Origin: a virus
Direction: 5' to 3' (one strand)
Length of the DNA stretch: 8,576 nucleotides
UHGV virus genome: UHGV-1373278
The notes under the pieces were generated by a model. It made no database searches and had not been told where the DNA came from. It saw nothing but the letters and a program-made list of their open reading frames with translations. Numbering within the stretch: the stretch's first letter is position 1; each line of letters opens with the position of its first letter. The position numbers were made by a program, and so were the translations under genes. This document shows, one piece after another, positions 1 through 8,576 of this stretch.

Positions 1-65
1 CAGTGGATTACGGTCTGTGACCAATGACGGCACCGGTAACGCCAGTTCCCGCCATCCTTACCATT

Positions 66-98
66 GGTGCGCATAATGTACGACTCGTTATGTTGAAA
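66..98 (+). other. dif-like XerC/XerD recombination site (putative prophage attachment junction)
   Basis: GGTGCGCATAA (66-76) is identical to the E. coli dif XerC arm as I recall it. It is followed by an 11-nt central region TGTACGACTCG (77-87), versus 6 nt in chromosomal dif, then TTATGTTGAAA (88-98), which matches the dif XerD arm TTATGTTAAAT at 9 of 11 positions. Confidence 0.5.
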
Positions 99-136
99 AG
101 GCCGCTGCGAAAATCGAATCCCGCAGCGGCCTCTTT
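96..136. terminator. Stem-loop, probable bidirectional rho-independent terminator
   Basis: Perfect 10-bp inverted repeat GGCCGCTGCG (100-109) / CGCAGCGGCC (122-131) with a 12-nt loop. Flanked by AAAA (96-99), which is a U-run on the - strand, and TCTTT (132-136). Lies just downstream of the - strand CDS ending at 163. Confidence 0.5.
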
Positions 137-162
137 AGCATAACGTCATTATGCGAACCATA

Positions 163-963
163 TTATATTATTTTTATTTTTGGAAGCACATCATTCATGA
201 CTTTGACTCTTCCTCCATCCTTCATTTTATAATGATGCCAACTATCTGATTGAGCAATCGCATCATCGTGTATTTCTTTCGATATAGCTAATAAGTCCGT
301 ATTCATCCATGAAAATATACCTTCATCTACAAACTGTTTTGATATCAGCTCATAGTGGCTATTCTTTTTTACCGCAACATACAATGGATATTTTCTTTCG
401 ATATTTTCAGCTAAGCTGTCAAATGATATTATTGAAAAGTCATCCCGTTGTTGGCCTCTAATTAATGAGGTTTTTAATACATTGCCTTCATATTCCGATC
501 TGCGGCCGTGAACTAATACATACTTGAAGTTAAAGGGATTTCTTGCCATATGAGCTGGCTCAATAAAACCTTGTAATGTGTTGTTTTTAAAGTGATTTCT
601 ATTTGATTCCTCATCAATCCATGCTCTCCATGTATTTATCTGCTGTAACGCCATATTAAAATCAGCATGAAAGTCTGTGGATTTATCTTTAAAGTATTTT
701 GAGGATGGTTTTTCTATTTCAACAAGTACCACATTCCAATTGTCTGAACTTTTTGCGAGATATACGAAATCTGGTTTGTAATCACTAGATAATGGTAATT
801 TTCTAAGTACGGTACAAAAATGAATCCCATGATTTTGTTCAAATTCTCTTGGGATGAACATGGTGTTTTCTTCTAAATAATTTTGGTAAACTTGTTCAAC
901 TTCATTTCTATCCAGCAATTGCATATATTCATTTCTTTTCTGAACAGCATCTTGACCATTCAT
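163..963 (-). CDS. Hypothetical protein, 266 aa, with PD-(D/E)xK-like nuclease signature; AT-rich accessory cargo gene
   Basis: Long uninterrupted ORF in visibly AT-rich DNA, where chance ORFs of this length are unlikely. ATG start at 963-961. Motif KPDFVYL followed 13 residues later by a hydrophobic strand and VVLVEIEKP (residues about 64-86) resembles the restriction-endonuclease-like D ... (D/E)xK core. Function not established. Confidence 0.65.
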   Translation of the reverse strand: MNGQDAVQKRNEYMQLLDRNEVEQVYQNYLEENTMFIPREFEQNHGIHFCTVLRKLPLSSDYKPDFVYLAKSSDNWNVVLVEIEKPSSKYFKDKSTDFHADFNMALQQINTWRAWIDEESNRNHFKNNTLQGFIEPAHMARNPFNFKYVLVHGRRSEYEGNVLKTSLIRGQQRDDFSIISFDSLAENIERKYPLYVAVKKNSHYELISKQFVDEGIFSWMNTDLLAISKEIHDDAIAQSDSWHHYKMKDGGRVKVMNDVLPKIKII

Positions 964-1105
964 ATAGTAGTTCCATTTTTAATTAGATTAGCTTAAGCAC
1001 TTTTTGGTGATATCGAATTTTTAGCGTTTAAGGTGGCCGAGAGCACCGCGAAGCGGTTCGGGGTTCAGTGACACCCGAACTTTACCGTGGTTTCCCGCGG
1101 CGGAG

Positions 1106-1528
1106 TTACCAGTAATATGACTTTCTTCTGTGCCACCAATAAAGTAGGCCGTATCCGACGATAAGAATCCCGAAGAACATCAGCGACATTCCCCAGCCAG
1201 TTCCGTACCACGAAACCATATCATCGAAAACTAACCCGCCCATTTCACGAACTCCGGCTGCTTCCTTAAGAATTGGTTTGAATACCGGAATCAGAAGGGC
1301 GATCGCAAGTGGAGCACACCAGCGAACAAGACCAGTTTCCATTTTGATCCCGAAAAAGATCCCCGCACCGACAACAAGCAACCAGACTATCAGGCCAGGC
1401 GCAGTTTCCAGTGCTGTTTGCCATTCAACATCGAAAGTTTTCATTAGCCAGGCAACAACTGCCAGACAGAAAGCAAATACGCCCACGACAACCAGTTCAA
1501 CGCCGCTTGTTTCGTTATTTCTACTCAT
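1106..1528 (-). CDS. Small integral membrane protein (about 140 aa, about 4 predicted TM helices)
   Basis: Start preferred at the ATG at 1528-1526 (MSRNNETSG...), preceded by an AGGA about 8 nt upstream. The ORF-track start at 1675 would overlap the upstream gene and its terminator hairpins. Protein has several long hydrophobic stretches (LVVVGVFAFCLAVVAWL, GLIVWLLVVGAGIFFGI, WCAPLAIALLIPVF, MSLMFFGILIVGYGLLYWW) and a basic C-terminus. Confidence 0.55.
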   Translation of the reverse strand: MSRNNETSGVELVVVGVFAFCLAVVAWLMKTFDVEWQTALETAPGLIVWLLVVGAGIFFGIKMETGLVRWCAPLAIALLIPVFKPILKEAAGVREMGGLVFDDMVSWYGTGWGMSLMFFGILIVGYGLLYWWHRRKSYYW

Positions 1529-1554
1529 CCTTTTGATCCTTTTTCGCTGTTCAA

Positions 1555-1616
1555 AACTCGCACAATAAAGAACGTGCAGTGTAGGTAATACTGCACGTTT
1601 GTACCATTCGTGGTAC
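1555..1616 (-). terminator. Two tandem hairpins downstream of the small regulator gene (- strand terminator candidate)
   Basis: Hairpin 1: GTACCA (1601-1606) / TGGTAC (1611-1616) with loop TTCG. Hairpin 2: 10-bp stem AACGTGCAGT (1571-1580) / ACTGCACGTT (1590-1599) with a 9-nt loop. On the - strand, hairpin 2 is followed by CUUUAUUGUG. Confidence 0.45.
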
Positions 1617-1799
1617 TTAATCCTTTTGTTTGGCAGACATGAGATCTTCTGCTGCATCTTTAGAGTAGTTATCAATCAGATAACCTAAAATCTCTGTCCA
1701 TGTAATTGTTTTTCCTAGTTTTACACTGGCATTTATAGCCAGTCGTTCTAGTTTCATTTTTCTTTCTTCCGTCACGTTATAAGTCGTGCGCTTTGCCAT
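1617..1799 (-). CDS. Small DNA-binding regulator candidate (60 aa, ribbon-helix-helix-like)
   Basis: ATG at 1799-1797. N-terminal pattern KRTTYNVTEERKMKLERLA (beta strand then helix) with a G-K-T helix cap fits an RHH (Arc/CopG-like) fold. Divergent from gII across a repeat-rich intergenic region, the position expected for a phage repressor. Confidence 0.5.
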   Translation of the reverse strand: MAKRTTYNVTEERKMKLERLAINASVKLGKTITWTEILGYLIDNYSKDAAEDLMSAKQKD

Positions 1800-1839
1800 T
1801 TTTTACGCTCGTTCAATGCAATATTTGAAGTGAGTATAC

Positions 1840-1968
1840 ATGCTCATGAACTCATATCATCCAAGCCTCTTGAACTCACTAGCTCACTGGTGTAATGTTA
1901 AAACACTAATGAACTACTGAACTCATGTGTTAGTAAGTCGTCATTTTTGCAATTTTGAGGATTTATTC
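1840..1968 (+). promoter_or_regulatory. gII upstream control region: iterated TGAACT(C/A)(A/C) repeats and a candidate sigma70 promoter; possible (+) origin region
   Basis: Four direct copies of TGAACTCA-like octamers at 1847-1854, 1871-1878, 1911-1918 and 1919-1926. Candidate -35 TTGAAC (1870-1875), 17-nt spacer, -10 TAATGT (1893-1898). GAGG (1957-1960) lies 8 nt before the GTG at 1969. Several short dyad symmetries (TCATGA, TGAGT/ACTCA) at 1830-1855. Confidence 0.4.
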
Positions 1969-3021
1969 GTGATCGATTGGCTTACCGGGATTTTCCCTTG
2001 CACACACAAACCGCTTCCGGCGGGGAGTGTTGTCAGCGTTGATGCTGACGGTGCAATTGAGTGGGAAACCGTTAAGCGACTGACTGTTCGCGGTTCGCAT
2101 GAAGCAACGATGAAAGTACGATCGATAGGATCTAATGGCGAAGGTAAAGCGACACATTTGTACATTGATGGTAATCCTTCCAAGTTTCTGCAGGGGCATT
2201 CTGTTGTTGGGTCGGATGATATACAAGGGCTCATGTTGACGGTCTATGCCAGGATTTTATCCTTATTGAATATTCCTCATGATTTAGCGTCTTATAAAGC
2301 CGTTATGGCAGGTCAGTATAAAATTTCACGTGTTGACATTAATTACATGTATTCATTATCTACGCTGGAAAATGTCAGATCATGGCTTTATGCCGCCGAA
2401 TTTAAAGCTAAAACACGCCATGGTCGCGCATGTGGGAAAGGCGGTACAGTTTATTTAGGTAAAAACTCCCGTCGATGGAGTCTGAAATTTTATTCAAAAT
2501 ATGATGAACACGTTTCTGGTAAAAAAGGGCACCAGATAGCCGAAGAGTTTGTACGAGCCGGGTTACTGGACTGGACGAAAGATAAATTACGTATTGAATT
2601 AACATTAAGAACAACTGAGCTTATTGATTTAAATTTAACGCTTGGCGCTAACTGGAATATGAAAACACCACGTCAATTATTCTCTGAATATGTAGGGAGA
2701 ATAGAAATGAATCAGAATGCTATTTTAAGTGATGAAAAAATAACGAAACTGCCAAGAAAAATACAGTCAACTTATTTACTTTGGAAACAAGGGGCTAACA
2801 TGAAAGAAATGTTACCTCATAACACTTTTTATCGCCATAGAAGAGAATTGCTTTCGTTCGGTATCGATATTAATTTCTATTGTGATTCACCAGACTCTAA
2901 TAACGTTGTTCCGCTAATAAGAACGCTGGAAGCCAAGCCAGCGGAAATCCCCTTATGGATTTATGAGAAAGGTTTTATTTTCGATTACAACCGTATTTCG
3001 CACGCCAGTAGCTGGCATTAA
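1969..3021 (+). CDS. II: Replication initiation protein pII (rolling-circle nickase), Ff gene II homolog
   Basis: No in-frame ATG near the 5' end, so a GTG start is inferred. GTG at 1969 has a GAGG RBS 8 nt upstream and gives MIDWLTG..., like Ff pII MIDMLVL... The alternative GTG at 1927 lacks an RBS. C-terminal region contains NVVPLIR, as in Ff pII (NVVPLVR). First gene in the Ff order. Confidence 0.8.
   Translation: MIDWLTGIFPCTHKPLPAGSVVSVDADGAIEWETVKRLTVRGSHEATMKVRSIGSNGEGKATHLYIDGNPSKFLQGHSVVGSDDIQGLMLTVYARILSLLNIPHDLASYKAVMAGQYKISRVDINYMYSLSTLENVRSWLYAAEFKAKTRHGRACGKGGTVYLGKNSRRWSLKFYSKYDEHVSGKKGHQIAEEFVRAGLLDWTKDKLRIELTLRTTELIDLNLTLGANWNMKTPRQLFSEYVGRIEMNQNAILSDEKITKLPRKIQSTYLLWKQGANMKEMLPHNTFYRHRRELLSFGIDINFYCDSPDSNNVVPLIRTLEAKPAEIPLWIYEKGFIFDYNRISHASSWH
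2707..3021 (+). CDS. X: pX, in-frame internal translation product of gene II (104 aa)
   Basis: In-frame ATG at 2707 preceded by AGGGAGA (2694-2700) with a 6-nt spacer. Product starts MNQNAILSDE, like Ff pX MNIYDDSAVL. An alternative in-frame ATG at about 2660 (MKTPRQ...) is possible. Confidence 0.55.
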   Translation: MNQNAILSDEKITKLPRKIQSTYLLWKQGANMKEMLPHNTFYRHRRELLSFGIDINFYCDSPDSNNVVPLIRTLEAKPAEIPLWIYEKGFIFDYNRISHASSWH

Positions 3022-3032
3022 AGGAAAGTAAT

Positions 3033-3350
3033 ATGTCTAATTATGGTCTTTTCGTTAAGGGTAAAATGTTGGGAGCCCGCCAACGTAATAAAGTTAATGG
3101 TCAGGGCTATTATAATGAAATTGGTATTGGCCTTGAAATACCTGATGGTTTTGGTGGTACAAAGCAGGATCAAATTATTATTCGAGTTTCTCAGGCTCTC
3201 GTTAACGCAGGTCTAATGAACCAGGCGAATGCTTTCATTGGGAAATTAGTTCAAATTCCTGTCTATGTCCGTGCGTGGTCAATGGAGGGTAGGGAAGGTG
3301 TAACTTATAATGTTTCTTCCGATGGTGGCATCGCAGAGATCAAAGGTTAA
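3033..3350 (+). CDS. V: Putative ssDNA-binding protein at the gene V position (105 aa; not recognisably Ff pV-like)
   Basis: ATG at 3033 with AGGA RBS (3022-3025) immediately after the gII stop. Size and position match gene V, but the sequence is Gly-rich and basic and does not match Ff/IKe pV from memory. Confidence 0.6.
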   Translation: MSNYGLFVKGKMLGARQRNKVNGQGYYNEIGIGLEIPDGFGGTKQDQIIIRVSQALVNAGLMNQANAFIGKLVQIPVYVRAWSMEGREGVTYNVSSDGGIAEIKG

Positions 3351-3842: not shown

Positions 3843-5165
3843 ATGAGAAGGAAAATATTAATTCTTTCCGCTGTCCTCATTTCTCCTTTTTCACATGCTG
3901 AGTCATGGGAAAGCATTACTAAATCCACTTATCAAAGTTCTGCCTACGCTGAAAGTAAGCAAATAACCAATCAGGATGGCTCTAAGATAACGGTTTACTA
4001 TATTGATGCTGCTATGCAGGCCTCCGCTTGTCAGGGTGCTAAATCCAGTGCTCAGAGTGTATTTACTCGGATTAAACCAACTTATGAGGGTATCTGGCCT
4101 GATTCTGAATTCCGTCTTGTTTTTACTGGCGATTGTACTTACAGCGATTCACCAGGGCAGAAGGATAAATATTGGTCTTTAACGGCTTATATTGTTGGTA
4201 ATATTCAGCGTTCTGTTCCTGATGAAAAACCTACTGACCCGACACCAGAAGAAATTTGTGAAGCGAAGCCGCCAGAAGAAGGTGTATTTAATAATGTTGA
4301 TTCATATGATGGTGGTCGCTATATCTACTATAACGGCTGTGAATATGAGGCTACTGGTGTCATTGTTTGTCAGGGTGATGGTACTGTTTGCGCTGCAACA
4401 TGGAAGCCTACAGGTGCTGTAGCTGACCCCTCTGATAAACCCTCAACCCCCCAAAATGGTGGTGGTGAGTCTGGCGGTGGTGAGTCCAGCGGTGGTGAGT
4501 CCAGCGGTGGTGAGTCTGGCGGTGGTGAGTCCGGCGGTGGTGAGTCCGGTGGTGGTGAGTCCGGCGGTGGTGAGTCTGGCGGTGGTGAGTCCGGTGGCGG
4601 TAGTTCTGGCGGTAGTTCTGGCGGTGGCTCTAGTGGTTCCAGTCTTTCTAAAGGTGATATTCAGTCTGCGATCGAAGGTGCTTCACCCAAAATAGCCAGC
4701 GATATTCATGATAAATTAACGGAGAAAGACACTTCATCAGATGATAAAAAAAATGCCGATGAACAAACCAGGAATAATATAAATCGTCTTGACGATTCCA
4801 TTAACAATCTTACGCGGGGGGCTGGCCGTTTTGCTGACCCTTCAGGTGGTGATTCTCGTTATGGAAAGGGCGACTCTGAATTAGATGGCGCTTCTACTTT
4901 GGCTGATTCTGAATTGGGAATTGAAAAGGATTCTCACGGTGCTTTATGGGAAGCGTTTTTAAATAAAGGTGCTATGCTGCCTAATTTACCCAATGGTAAC
5001 GGCTGCTCTGATTTTATTATTTTTCCCGGAGAGGTTTATCAGATTGATATTGGTTGCGATAAATTACTGACTATTAAAGATGTTCTTTCATGGGTTTTTT
5101 ATTGCCTTACGTTCTGGTATGTCTTTACTTCTTTAACTTCATTGCTTCGCAAAGGGGGTGAGTGA
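3843..5165 (+). CDS. III: Minor coat / adsorption protein pIII (440 aa)
   Basis: ATG at 3843 with signal peptide [19 protein letters not shown]. Cys motif [25 protein letters not shown] resembles the Ff N1 TolA-binding motif (CLWNATGVVVCTGDETQCYGTWVP). GGGES-repeat linker follows. C-terminal ...[40 protein letters not shown] resembles the Ff pIII C-terminus. The 3699 ORF-track start is an out-of-context upstream extension overlapping gVIII. Confidence 0.9.
4458..4640 (+). repeat. Tandem 15-bp in-frame repeat array encoding the (G-G-E-S-G/S) linker of pIII
   Basis: Nine near-identical 15-bp units GGTGGTGAGTC(T/C)(G/A)GC(G/T) from about 4461 to 4595, then degenerate Gly/Ser codons to about 4640. 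Confidence 0.85.
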
Positions 5166-7943: not shown

Positions 7944-8252
7944 ATGGATTCTTATGGGATTTTATCTGCTCTGGCAGAACGAACGATTACAGCGGAAGAA
8001 GCAAAAACAATGACACTTGCAGCCAGAAGTTCTTCGGCTCAGGTAAATGAAGCATCACTTGCTCTGTTACTGATTGATAATACTCTGGATGCGATCAAAG
8101 CAGCTGCCAGTGAAGGGAAAGGATACACTTTACTTCCTTCTTATGAGATTTCTGTAAAAGCCATTGATTTAGCAGAAGAATTTTTAAGGAAACAATGCGG
8201 CTATGTTATTGATAACCAGAATGGCGTAAGGACGGTCTATTGGTTTATATGA
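7944..8252 (+). CDS. Hypothetical protein (102 aa), accessory ORF downstream of gIV
   Basis: ATG at 7944 with a weak GGGG(T) SD-like element. Ala/Leu-rich, predicted largely helical, no signal peptide. No recognisable homology from memory. Followed by a structured region and a T7 run (8319-8325). Confidence 0.45.
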   Translation: MDSYGILSALAERTITAEEAKTMTLAARSSSAQVNEASLALLLIDNTLDAIKAAASEGKGYTLLPSYEISVKAIDLAEEFLRKQCGYVIDNQNGVRTVYWFI

Positions 8253-8369: not shown

Positions 8370-8576
8370 ATGCAATTTTTCACATCCAGCGATACTGTAA
8401 TGTTATGTGCGAAGACCTGCGATCGCTGTGGTCGCCATGCGAAGACGGTGGTAGATGACATTGAGTTCAATGAGTTTCTGTCTGTTAATCACTTAGCTGG
8501 ATACGGTTCAATTTTTGGTGACAGTAATCGCTTAAAACTGGATTTATGCCAACATTGCCTGAAAGACGTCCTGGGC
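8370..8576 (+). CDS. Cys-rich (putative zinc-ribbon) hypothetical protein, 5' partial; continues beyond the window
   Basis: ATG at 8370 with strong GAGGAG RBS (8359-8364). Frame open for 69 codons to the window end. Contains C-x3-C-x2-C (CAKTCDRCG) and C-x2-C (CQHC) motifs. Missing from the ORF track because no stop falls in the window. Confidence 0.5.
   Translation, partial: MQFFTSSDTVMLCAKTCDRCGRHAKTVVDDIEFNEFLSVNHLAGYGSIFGDSNRLKLDLCQHCLKDVLG

Follow-up and report, generated by a model that had tools for sequence, protein, structure and literature searches.

Type 2 Shedu proteins accounted for 2,286 of the 7,687 Shedu proteins of Gu et al. (2023), who suggested that they are perhaps constitutively active and predicted a homotetramer formed via the DUF4263 core. 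The type II "miniature" Shedu of Loeff et al. (2023) has a mean length of 254 amino acids (aa). Gu et al. also defined motifs II, III and IV of Bacillus cereus Shedu, reported that a truncated form of this protein was toxic, and proposed a sequence or modification preference for self/non-self discrimination. Here, we describe sduA, a minus-strand gene in the 8,576-nucleotide (nt) virus genome UHGV-1373278 (the window, that is, the whole stretch of DNA analysed). By sequence comparison and by analogy with a close allele, we consider it quite likely that sduA works as a defence gene of the Type 2 Shedu class, carried as lysogenic-conversion cargo by an Escherichia coli filamentous phage of the CUS-1/YpfPhi type that integrates at dif via XerCD.

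The close allele is E. coli 41-1 Shedu, which was cloned by Wang et al. (bioRxiv 10.1101/2022.06.16.496414; sequence in Table S3). It protected against T4(C) by ∼10^3-fold and T4(hmC) by ∼10^2-fold, but not against glucosylated T4, and was active against 10–11 of 111 phages with no abortive growth arrest in infected cultures. Furthermore, the purified protein degraded phage DNA in vitro, and a Q110A substitution abolished defence (Wang et al., 10.1101/2022.06.16.496414). We found that the 41-1 protein, of 268 aa and one residue off our homolog cluster P0009, is 80.8% identical to the sduA product over all 266 residues, and that its Q110 corresponds to Q108 of the sduA product. By analogy with this experimentally anti-phage allele, the anti-phage role that an initial annotation had raised for the gene appears probable. 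A second group reported that BAI39103.1, a "minimal" Shedu, is active; we infer that this is probably the allele on plasmid pO111_1.

Family, fold and catalytic residues of the sduA product

The initial annotation had described a 266-aa minus-strand open reading frame (ORF), which exists exactly as drawn, and had tentatively called its product a PD-(D/E)xK nuclease with DUF4263 (Shedu), NERD and Mrr among the candidate families. DUF4263 was the family that matched. The protein hit Pfam SduA_C (DUF4263, PF14082) over residues 21–184 with 90 bits against a cutoff of 27 (E = 2.4e-25), and PADLOC SduA (PDLC00378) over residues 2–265, against profile positions 4–284 of 287, at 5e-111. Pfam returned no NERD or Mrr match and, besides SduA_C, just one sub-threshold match to DUF6826. 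PF14082 is present in every one of the 120 database homologs, many of which bear the name "Shedu immune nuclease family protein", and the NCBI label on the sduA product is already DUF4263. The protein had no match in NCBIfam, only weak matches to function-unknown families in PHROGs, and no match in a single-sequence search of PDB sequences; a family profile searched against PDB sequences reached 8ti9 (B. cereus Shedu) at E = 0.029, with an alignment starting at residue 59.

The fold pointed the same way as the initial nuclease call. An AlphaFold (AF2) model had a predicted local distance difference test score (pLDDT) of 94.4, and the top nine Foldseek matches in the PDB were all solved Shedu structures (8ti9, 8ps4, 8ti8 and 8ps5), followed by FokI. 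E-values against the B. cereus (8ti8/8ti9) and E. coli (8ps4/8ps5) Shedu nuclease domains ranged from 5e-6 to 6e-4. An N-terminal sensor domain is absent, with DUF4263 beginning at residue 21 of 266, and we assigned the protein to the Type 2, or type II "miniature", class because it is short and lacks this domain. At the other end, ∼80 aa (residues 186–266; window 166–408, minus strand) form an extension that is specific to the subfamily and conserved within it. Modelled alone, the C-terminal 81 residues gave a small alpha/beta domain (pLDDT 93.7) with no significant neighbour among PDB structures (best E = 1.8).

We then compared the catalytic residues with those of solved Shedu. A D...E-I-E-K segment had been noted as a possible nuclease core in a non-canonical register; it is present at residues 63–86 (KPDFVYLAKSSDNWNVVLVEIEKP), and this register is genuine and shared across the family. 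Across 36 aligned homologs, with identity down to 38%, D65, E82, E84 and the motif IV glutamine Q108 were invariant (36/36), and K85 was kept in 34 and replaced by arginine in the remaining two. Profile alignment to 8ti9 paired D65 and E82 with the catalytic D249 and E264 of the B. cereus enzyme, E84 with K266, K85 with T267, and Q108 with Q295. In the AF2 model, D65 starts beta-2 and E82 ends beta-3. Because the invariant E84 fills the canonical lysine (K266) slot and K85 comes one residue later, motif III of this subfamily reads E-x-E-K. An acidic residue at the canonical lysine position is reminiscent of BamHI. E23 and E31, in the first helices and ahead of the PDB alignment, were at least 90% conserved and are candidates for the motif I glutamate. 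Overall, family membership, modelled fold and catalytic-residue conservation identify the predicted sduA product as a Shedu nuclease of the PD-(D/E)xK fold.

The cargo slot, its borders and its cassettes

From the ORF list and domain matches, the window encodes a complete Ff-like filamentous phage. Its final base continues into its first base within an 8,476-nt E. coli contig (GCA_012858715.2; L004), and a 77-aa phage ORF, identical to WP_001159442.1, is reconstituted across the junction. Since the ends join and this ORF is rebuilt, the window is either the entire phage genome in circular permutation or a single repeat of a tandem array. The gene had initially been placed at a prophage edge; it has that position only after phage integration via the site at ∼63–93. 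Integrated prophage contigs lose homology at ∼window 63, so sduA ends ∼100 nt from the prophage end. The left flank (window 1–162; 51% GC), which had been set apart from the phage core, is not host DNA; it consists of the phage attP region and the end of the 77-aa ORF.

The slot that sduA occupies is optional and its cargo can be exchanged; the attP hairpin bounds it on one side and a conserved intergenic element on the other (Table 1). Backbone homology to E. coli prophages stops at 160–172 on the left and restarts at 1053, 1081 or 1106 on the right. We surveyed the slot in 26 loci (23 IMG/VR loci and three E. coli genomes). It is empty (9 nt; positions 4424–4432) in the two phages L034 and L036, and at least 10 unrelated cargo sets fill it in other phages of the survey (L001–L003, L016–L037); backbone identity is 94–99% in most surveyed phages and ∼79% in both empty-slot phages. 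This variability upholds the earlier suggestion that the gene is cargo of separate origin, lying between the att site and the replication module. The cargo includes an AbiJ_NTD4+DUF7014 protein (STM4504 family; PADLOC candidate PDC-S32), a protein with a DpnII/MboI-type restriction endonuclease domain and DUF6953, a CAP12/Pycsar-type TIR protein, and several membrane or zinc-ribbon proteins with no family match. Among the cargo sets are ones encoding 155+123, 91+159, 98+262, 110, 369 and 101+216 aa; many of these are membrane proteins and several have no detectable family. The family-less sets are candidate uncharacterised defence or exclusion genes.

Base composition was consistent with this exchange. 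The AT-richness initially judged by eye is borne out by computation: sduA has 32.7% GC compared with 42.0% in the remaining window, a value as low being found in just 0.6% of all 801-nt windows, and the phage genes span 36.6–47.9%. GC content at third codon positions (0.27) differs little from that of other phage genes (0.25–0.38). All measured cargo sets have 34–36% GC compared with 41.7% for the backbone, and six measured Shedu relatives (54–87% identical) have 31–33.5%, even in the 60% GC context of Aeromonas. Because the cargo sets are low in GC, as are the Shedu relatives whatever the host, AT-richness is a property of the travelling cassettes, and it therefore supports separate acquisition.

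Within the slot, sduA is the sole ORF longer than 50 aa, besides one 50-aa antisense ORF, and its neighbours are backbone genes common to phages with other cargo. With no other substantial ORF in the slot, sduA is a single-gene system. The ORF list and Pfam revealed no methyltransferase ORF in the window, and hence no restriction-modification pair. We also ruled out a KELAB-type two-component Shedu, as there is no partner ORF and KELB is longer with an N-terminal domain.

Both slot borders are structured. As single-stranded DNA (ssDNA), attP folds at −31.4 kcal/mol (z = −7.6), and it matches itself in reverse. Its site at 66–98 reads GGTGCGCATAA-TGTACGACTCG-TTATGTTGAAA, which we take, by eye, to resemble E. 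coli dif. The GC-rich tip of the hairpin (100–135) may double as the terminator of the leftward transcript. Rfam gave nothing credible in the window; its lone sub-threshold match overlaps this tip, and no family matched the right border.

That right border is a ∼57-nt element with three hairpins, reading CCGCGG-GAAA-CCACGG, GTTCGGG...CCCCGAAC and CCGC-TTCG-GCGG on the minus strand. It is 94.8% identical to the major intergenic region of If1 (L045 1504–1553), and further copies lie in L015, L034–L036 (3898–3948), L006, L013, L014, L039, L046 and L047 (581–618). Several of these are inoviruses; elsewhere the element stands directly between an ISNCY transposase gene and a Shedu, SIR2 or STM4504 gene. 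In a consensus fold, three pairs showed compensatory change, all in hairpin 1. Folded as plus-strand ssDNA, window 1020–1110 was no better than shuffled sequence (z = −0.8); the structure of the element is drawn from comparative alignment. A packaging signal, a minus-strand origin and an RNA stabiliser are candidate roles. We disfavoured an ISNCY terminus, since the element also occurs in If1 and further inoviruses lacking a transposase, and is not multi-copy in E. coli genomes.

We next followed the gene and its borders beyond this phage. The exact protein was found just twice, in phage contig L004 and in one SRA assembly. Alleles of 80–88% identity were plasmid-borne in 64 of 68 matching plasmid records, with 60 of the 68 conjugative, and typically lie directly downstream of an ISNCY transposase gene (L006, L039, L046); cluster P0009 is carried on IncHI-type plasmids such as pO111_1. 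Shedu cassettes in Serratia (L039) and Enterobacter (L007) retain both borders, the 1043–1100 element and an attP arm to ∼window 91. One arm of the attP palindrome, window 89–166 (∼75 nt, 94% identical), has copies at L013 6001–6076 and L014 4001–4072. On the chromosomes of many E. coli, it lies behind a SIR2-family gene beside hipBA, in the dif region; on many IncF-size plasmids, it stands at a fixed position behind an STM4504/AbiJ-like gene. The opposite side of the cargo is taken, at both loci, by a frequently degraded ISNCY transposase gene, and the loci look like remnants of phages or Xer-dependent elements that retain just the defence cargo. Aeromonas and Acinetobacter share the ORF alone, with no flanks. 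In IMG/VR contig L047 (IMGVR_UViG_644736397_000001, positions 1–3050), a 54%-identical Shedu preceded by the three-hairpin element lies beside a different inovirus (Zot, secretin). This Shedu is 92.6% identical to Edwardsiella tarda P0016 and is followed by a DUF4427 gene; with dif-like sequences at positions 1–14 and 3020–3046 bounding it, the region may be a separate Xer-dependent mini-element or satellite.

Given this distribution on plasmids, dif remnants and other inoviruses, the phage copy is one rare placement of a circulating cassette, with transfer possible in either direction. A bolder proposal, which we put forward tentatively and hold somewhat short of even, is that the attP-proximal slot of CUS-1/YpfPhi inoviruses is a cassette-exchange hotspot for small defence modules, with borders 1043–1100 and 89–166. 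Phages, Xer remnants and plasmids would then share one cassette pool, and the validated "E. coli Shedu" would itself be phage-derived. At the chromosomal dif locus and on conjugative plasmids of the IncHI and IncF types, ISNCY-linked copies of Shedu, SIR2 and AbiJ-like genes likewise have one or both of these borders.

Proposed role and its alternatives

We reasoned that leftward expression of sduA in a lysogen would start either in the DNA just upstream of the gene or, with read-through, in the regulator operon. The 74% DNA homology with the cloned functional 41-1 fragment spans the upstream spacer up to window 1097, and read-through from the leftward backbone genes is possible since the 60-aa and 140-aa genes share the orientation of sduA. 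The protein would form a homotetramer through its DUF4263 core and, having no N-terminal inhibitory sensor, would be constitutively competent. Incoming double-stranded DNA (dsDNA) phage genomes would be cut directly, without abortive infection, and such cutting would shield the lysogen and hence the prophage too. The chromosome and the circular ssDNA and replicative form of the phage would escape, perhaps, if we speculate, for lack of free DNA ends; the C-terminal extension of 80 residues may confer specificity.

Several observations weigh against a defence role in this phage. A constitutively active nuclease would have to spare the host and the phage's own replicative form, and, with E84 in the lysine position of motif III, the predicted catalytic geometry departs from the textbook. 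The functional data all come from close alleles outside a phage context. A consensus promoter/terminator scan found no consensus sigma-70 promoter upstream of sduA, so the promoter is a presumed one; the same scan also failed to pick up the attP stem. Furthermore, none of 5,426 complete E. coli genomes had a locus that covered the query across the slot, and 50,697 deposited phage genomes yielded no relative with more than 30% identity. The allele is rare in the phage setting, and could be a recent, possibly transient capture.

Four other explanations are each less consistent with the evidence than Shedu defence. The one that survives best, although we think it unlikely, is competition between elements, in which the nuclease would cut replication or transfer intermediates and in this way keep out superinfecting filamentous phages, other Xer-dependent elements at dif, or incoming plasmids. 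Such a function would suit the only partial superinfection immunity that endogenous YpfPhi confers, the dynamic nature of tandem arrays, the block that a type I E. coli SduA imposes on linear DNA propagation, and the carriage of close alleles by conjugative plasmids. However, the sole functional data for the clade show protection against tailed dsDNA phages, closely related phages do without sduA, and we saw no indication here of activity on circular ssDNA.

In our judgement, it is very improbable that sduA is just a passenger, passive or in decay, which recombination at the conserved slot flanks brought in and which is unexpressed or inactive in this phage. The rarity of the gene in a phage context and the lack of a detected consensus promoter would fit a passenger, but the ORF is intact and full-length with every invariant family residue present, and its upstream spacer is homologous to that of the functional cloned fragment. 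We give marginally less credence still to an addiction or toxin module, by which a constitutive nuclease would penalise loss of the prophage and stabilise an unstable element. YpfPhi is indeed unstable as an episome, and Gu et al. raised constitutive activity as a possibility for Type 2 Shedu and found toxicity for the truncated B. cereus protein; against this, the slot holds no antitoxin or partner gene, and the close allele was cloned into E. coli by itself, purified from BL21 and gave infected cultures without defence-mediated growth arrest. Finally, a housekeeping nuclease for phage replication, integration or excision might be supposed from the closeness of sduA to attP and the replication module, but it is effectively excluded by the empty slots of L034 and L036 and the unrelated genes in other family phages, most with 94–99% identical backbone, and this phage family integrates by host XerCD.

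The phage backbone and comparison with described systems

The features of the locus and of the surrounding phage are listed in Table 1. Besides Rep, the phage encodes a G5P-like ssDNA-binding protein, a major coat protein, a G3P-like adsorption protein, a G6P-like protein, Zot/pI and the pIV secretin.

Table 1. Positions of sduA, its slot and borders, and selected phage genes in the window
Feature	Position	Strand	Remark
sduA, predicted Type 2 (DUF4263-only) Shedu nuclease gene	163–963	−	266 aa, ATG start
K63–P86 codons	706–777	−	Motif II Asp and motif III
D65, E82, E84 and K85 codons	769–771, 718–720, 712–714 and 709–711	−	Codons checked by hand
Q108 codon	640–642	−	Motif IV glutamine, invariant; aligns with Q295
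Upstream spacer of sduA	964–1042	−	Presumed promoter and ribosome-binding site; DNA homology to 41-1 fragment
Accessory (cargo) slot, whole	161–1105		Between attP hairpin and conserved structured element
attP	63–160		Left slot border; imperfect palindrome with two inverted dif-like XerC/XerD sites (66–98, 132–160)
Three-hairpin element	1043–1100	−	Right slot border
140-aa membrane protein gene	1106–1528	−	phrog_4174; leftward backbone, upstream of sduA
60-aa protein gene	1617–1799	−	phrog_2503; leftward backbone, upstream of sduA
Promoter-like site	1860–1833	−	Ahead of leftward backbone genes (promoter/terminator scan)
Rep	1927–3021		PF05144 and PF05155
102-aa ORF	7944–8252		phrog_4115

By gene order, dif integration and literature description, the phage belongs to the CUS-1/YpfPhi family. 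Its backbone is 96–99% identical at the nucleotide level to E. coli prophages of this type, which we estimate, by rough extrapolation from a ranked match list, to occur in ∼100 complete E. coli genomes. Tandem arrays of the same backbone are present in E. coli F11, WL297 and 1368KP, and have been described for YpfPhi, as have paired Xer sites of the CTX type. The 77-aa ORF (8370–8576 and 1–27, plus strand; WP_001159442.1) has two CxxC pairs, is zinc-ribbon-like and stops just short of attP; together with the 102-aa ORF, it probably corresponds to the function-less ORFs noted next to attR in YpfPhi.

Other differences between related phages lie away from the slot. The G3P-like gene carries a Gly/Ser/Glu-rich linker repeat (GGGES units) at ∼4450–4700 on the plus strand. 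Compared with L004, which is otherwise collinear, the window has 117 extra nt at some point between positions 500 and 8000; since G3P of L004 is annotated at 401 aa, the difference probably sits in this linker and would reflect a length polymorphism of the adsorption protein. In some related E. coli prophages (H37–H45, matching window 40–1627 only), a helix-turn-helix protein replaces the 60-aa leftward gene, a swap which suggests that this backbone can carry different immunity or regulator modules.

Of the described Shedu systems, E. coli 41-1 Shedu resembles sduA in its size class, its E-I-E-K motif, its motif IV glutamine and its homologous upstream DNA, structured element included. Unlike sduA, it has two additional N-terminal residues and is found on conjugative plasmids, not in an intact phage, with an ISNCY transposase gene on one side and IS1 on the other. 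Type 2 "miniature" Shedu (Gu et al., 2023; Loeff et al., 2023) shares with sduA a DUF4263 core only, the absence of a sensor, a similar length (mean 254 aa compared with 266 aa) and a single-gene organisation, whereas the 80-aa C-terminal extension and the E-x-E-K form of motif III depart from the Type 2 description. The Type 1 enzymes, B. cereus SduA (8ti8/8ti9) and E. coli SduA (8ps4/8ps5), have the same nuclease fold and align at motifs II, III and IV; however, they are 15–19% identical to the sduA product and bear N-terminal sensor or clamp domains that autoinhibit or sense DNA ends, and the B. cereus enzyme has a canonical E-x-K. Shedu itself is well studied, and what is known of it is unchanged by this locus, which we regard as moderately interesting for its slot diversity, shared cassette borders and E-x-E-K variant. 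The locus provides a natural test case for how a Type 2 Shedu tells self from non-self, as it is housed in a phage with both circular ssDNA and dsDNA of its own.

On the phage side, CUS-1 (E. coli O18:K1:H7) and YpfPhi (Yersinia pestis) share the backbone, dif/XerCD integration via paired inverted Xer sites and tandem arrays with this phage, and their attL-adjacent ORFs vary between phages, as does the content of its slot. Where two ORFs "with no predicted function" were published for CUS-1/YpfPhi, this phage has a recognisable defence gene, and so the cargo position next to attL gains a probable function. The shared cassette borders suggest a route for defence genes between inoviruses and conjugative plasmids, and, if the slot is indeed an exchange hotspot, unexplained fitness effects of CUS-1/YpfPhi could come from its cargo.

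We found no report in the literature of Shedu in an inovirus or of the CUS-1/YpfPhi slot as a defence locus. Shedu is never mentioned in the main text of the paper on Vibrio filamentous prophages (Steensen et al., 2024), nor is it among the eight systems found in Pseudomonas Pf phages (2025). The novelty that the initial annotation had seen in such cargo is therefore a narrower one: because defence cargo of Vibrio and Pf phages is already documented, only the combination of Shedu with CUS-1/YpfPhi appears unreported. Those phages are likewise small inoviruses with a variable locus rich in defence, but of a different lineage and in different hosts. The sduA locus extends the defence cargo of small filamentous prophages from Vibrio and Pseudomonas to enterobacterial phages that integrate at dif.

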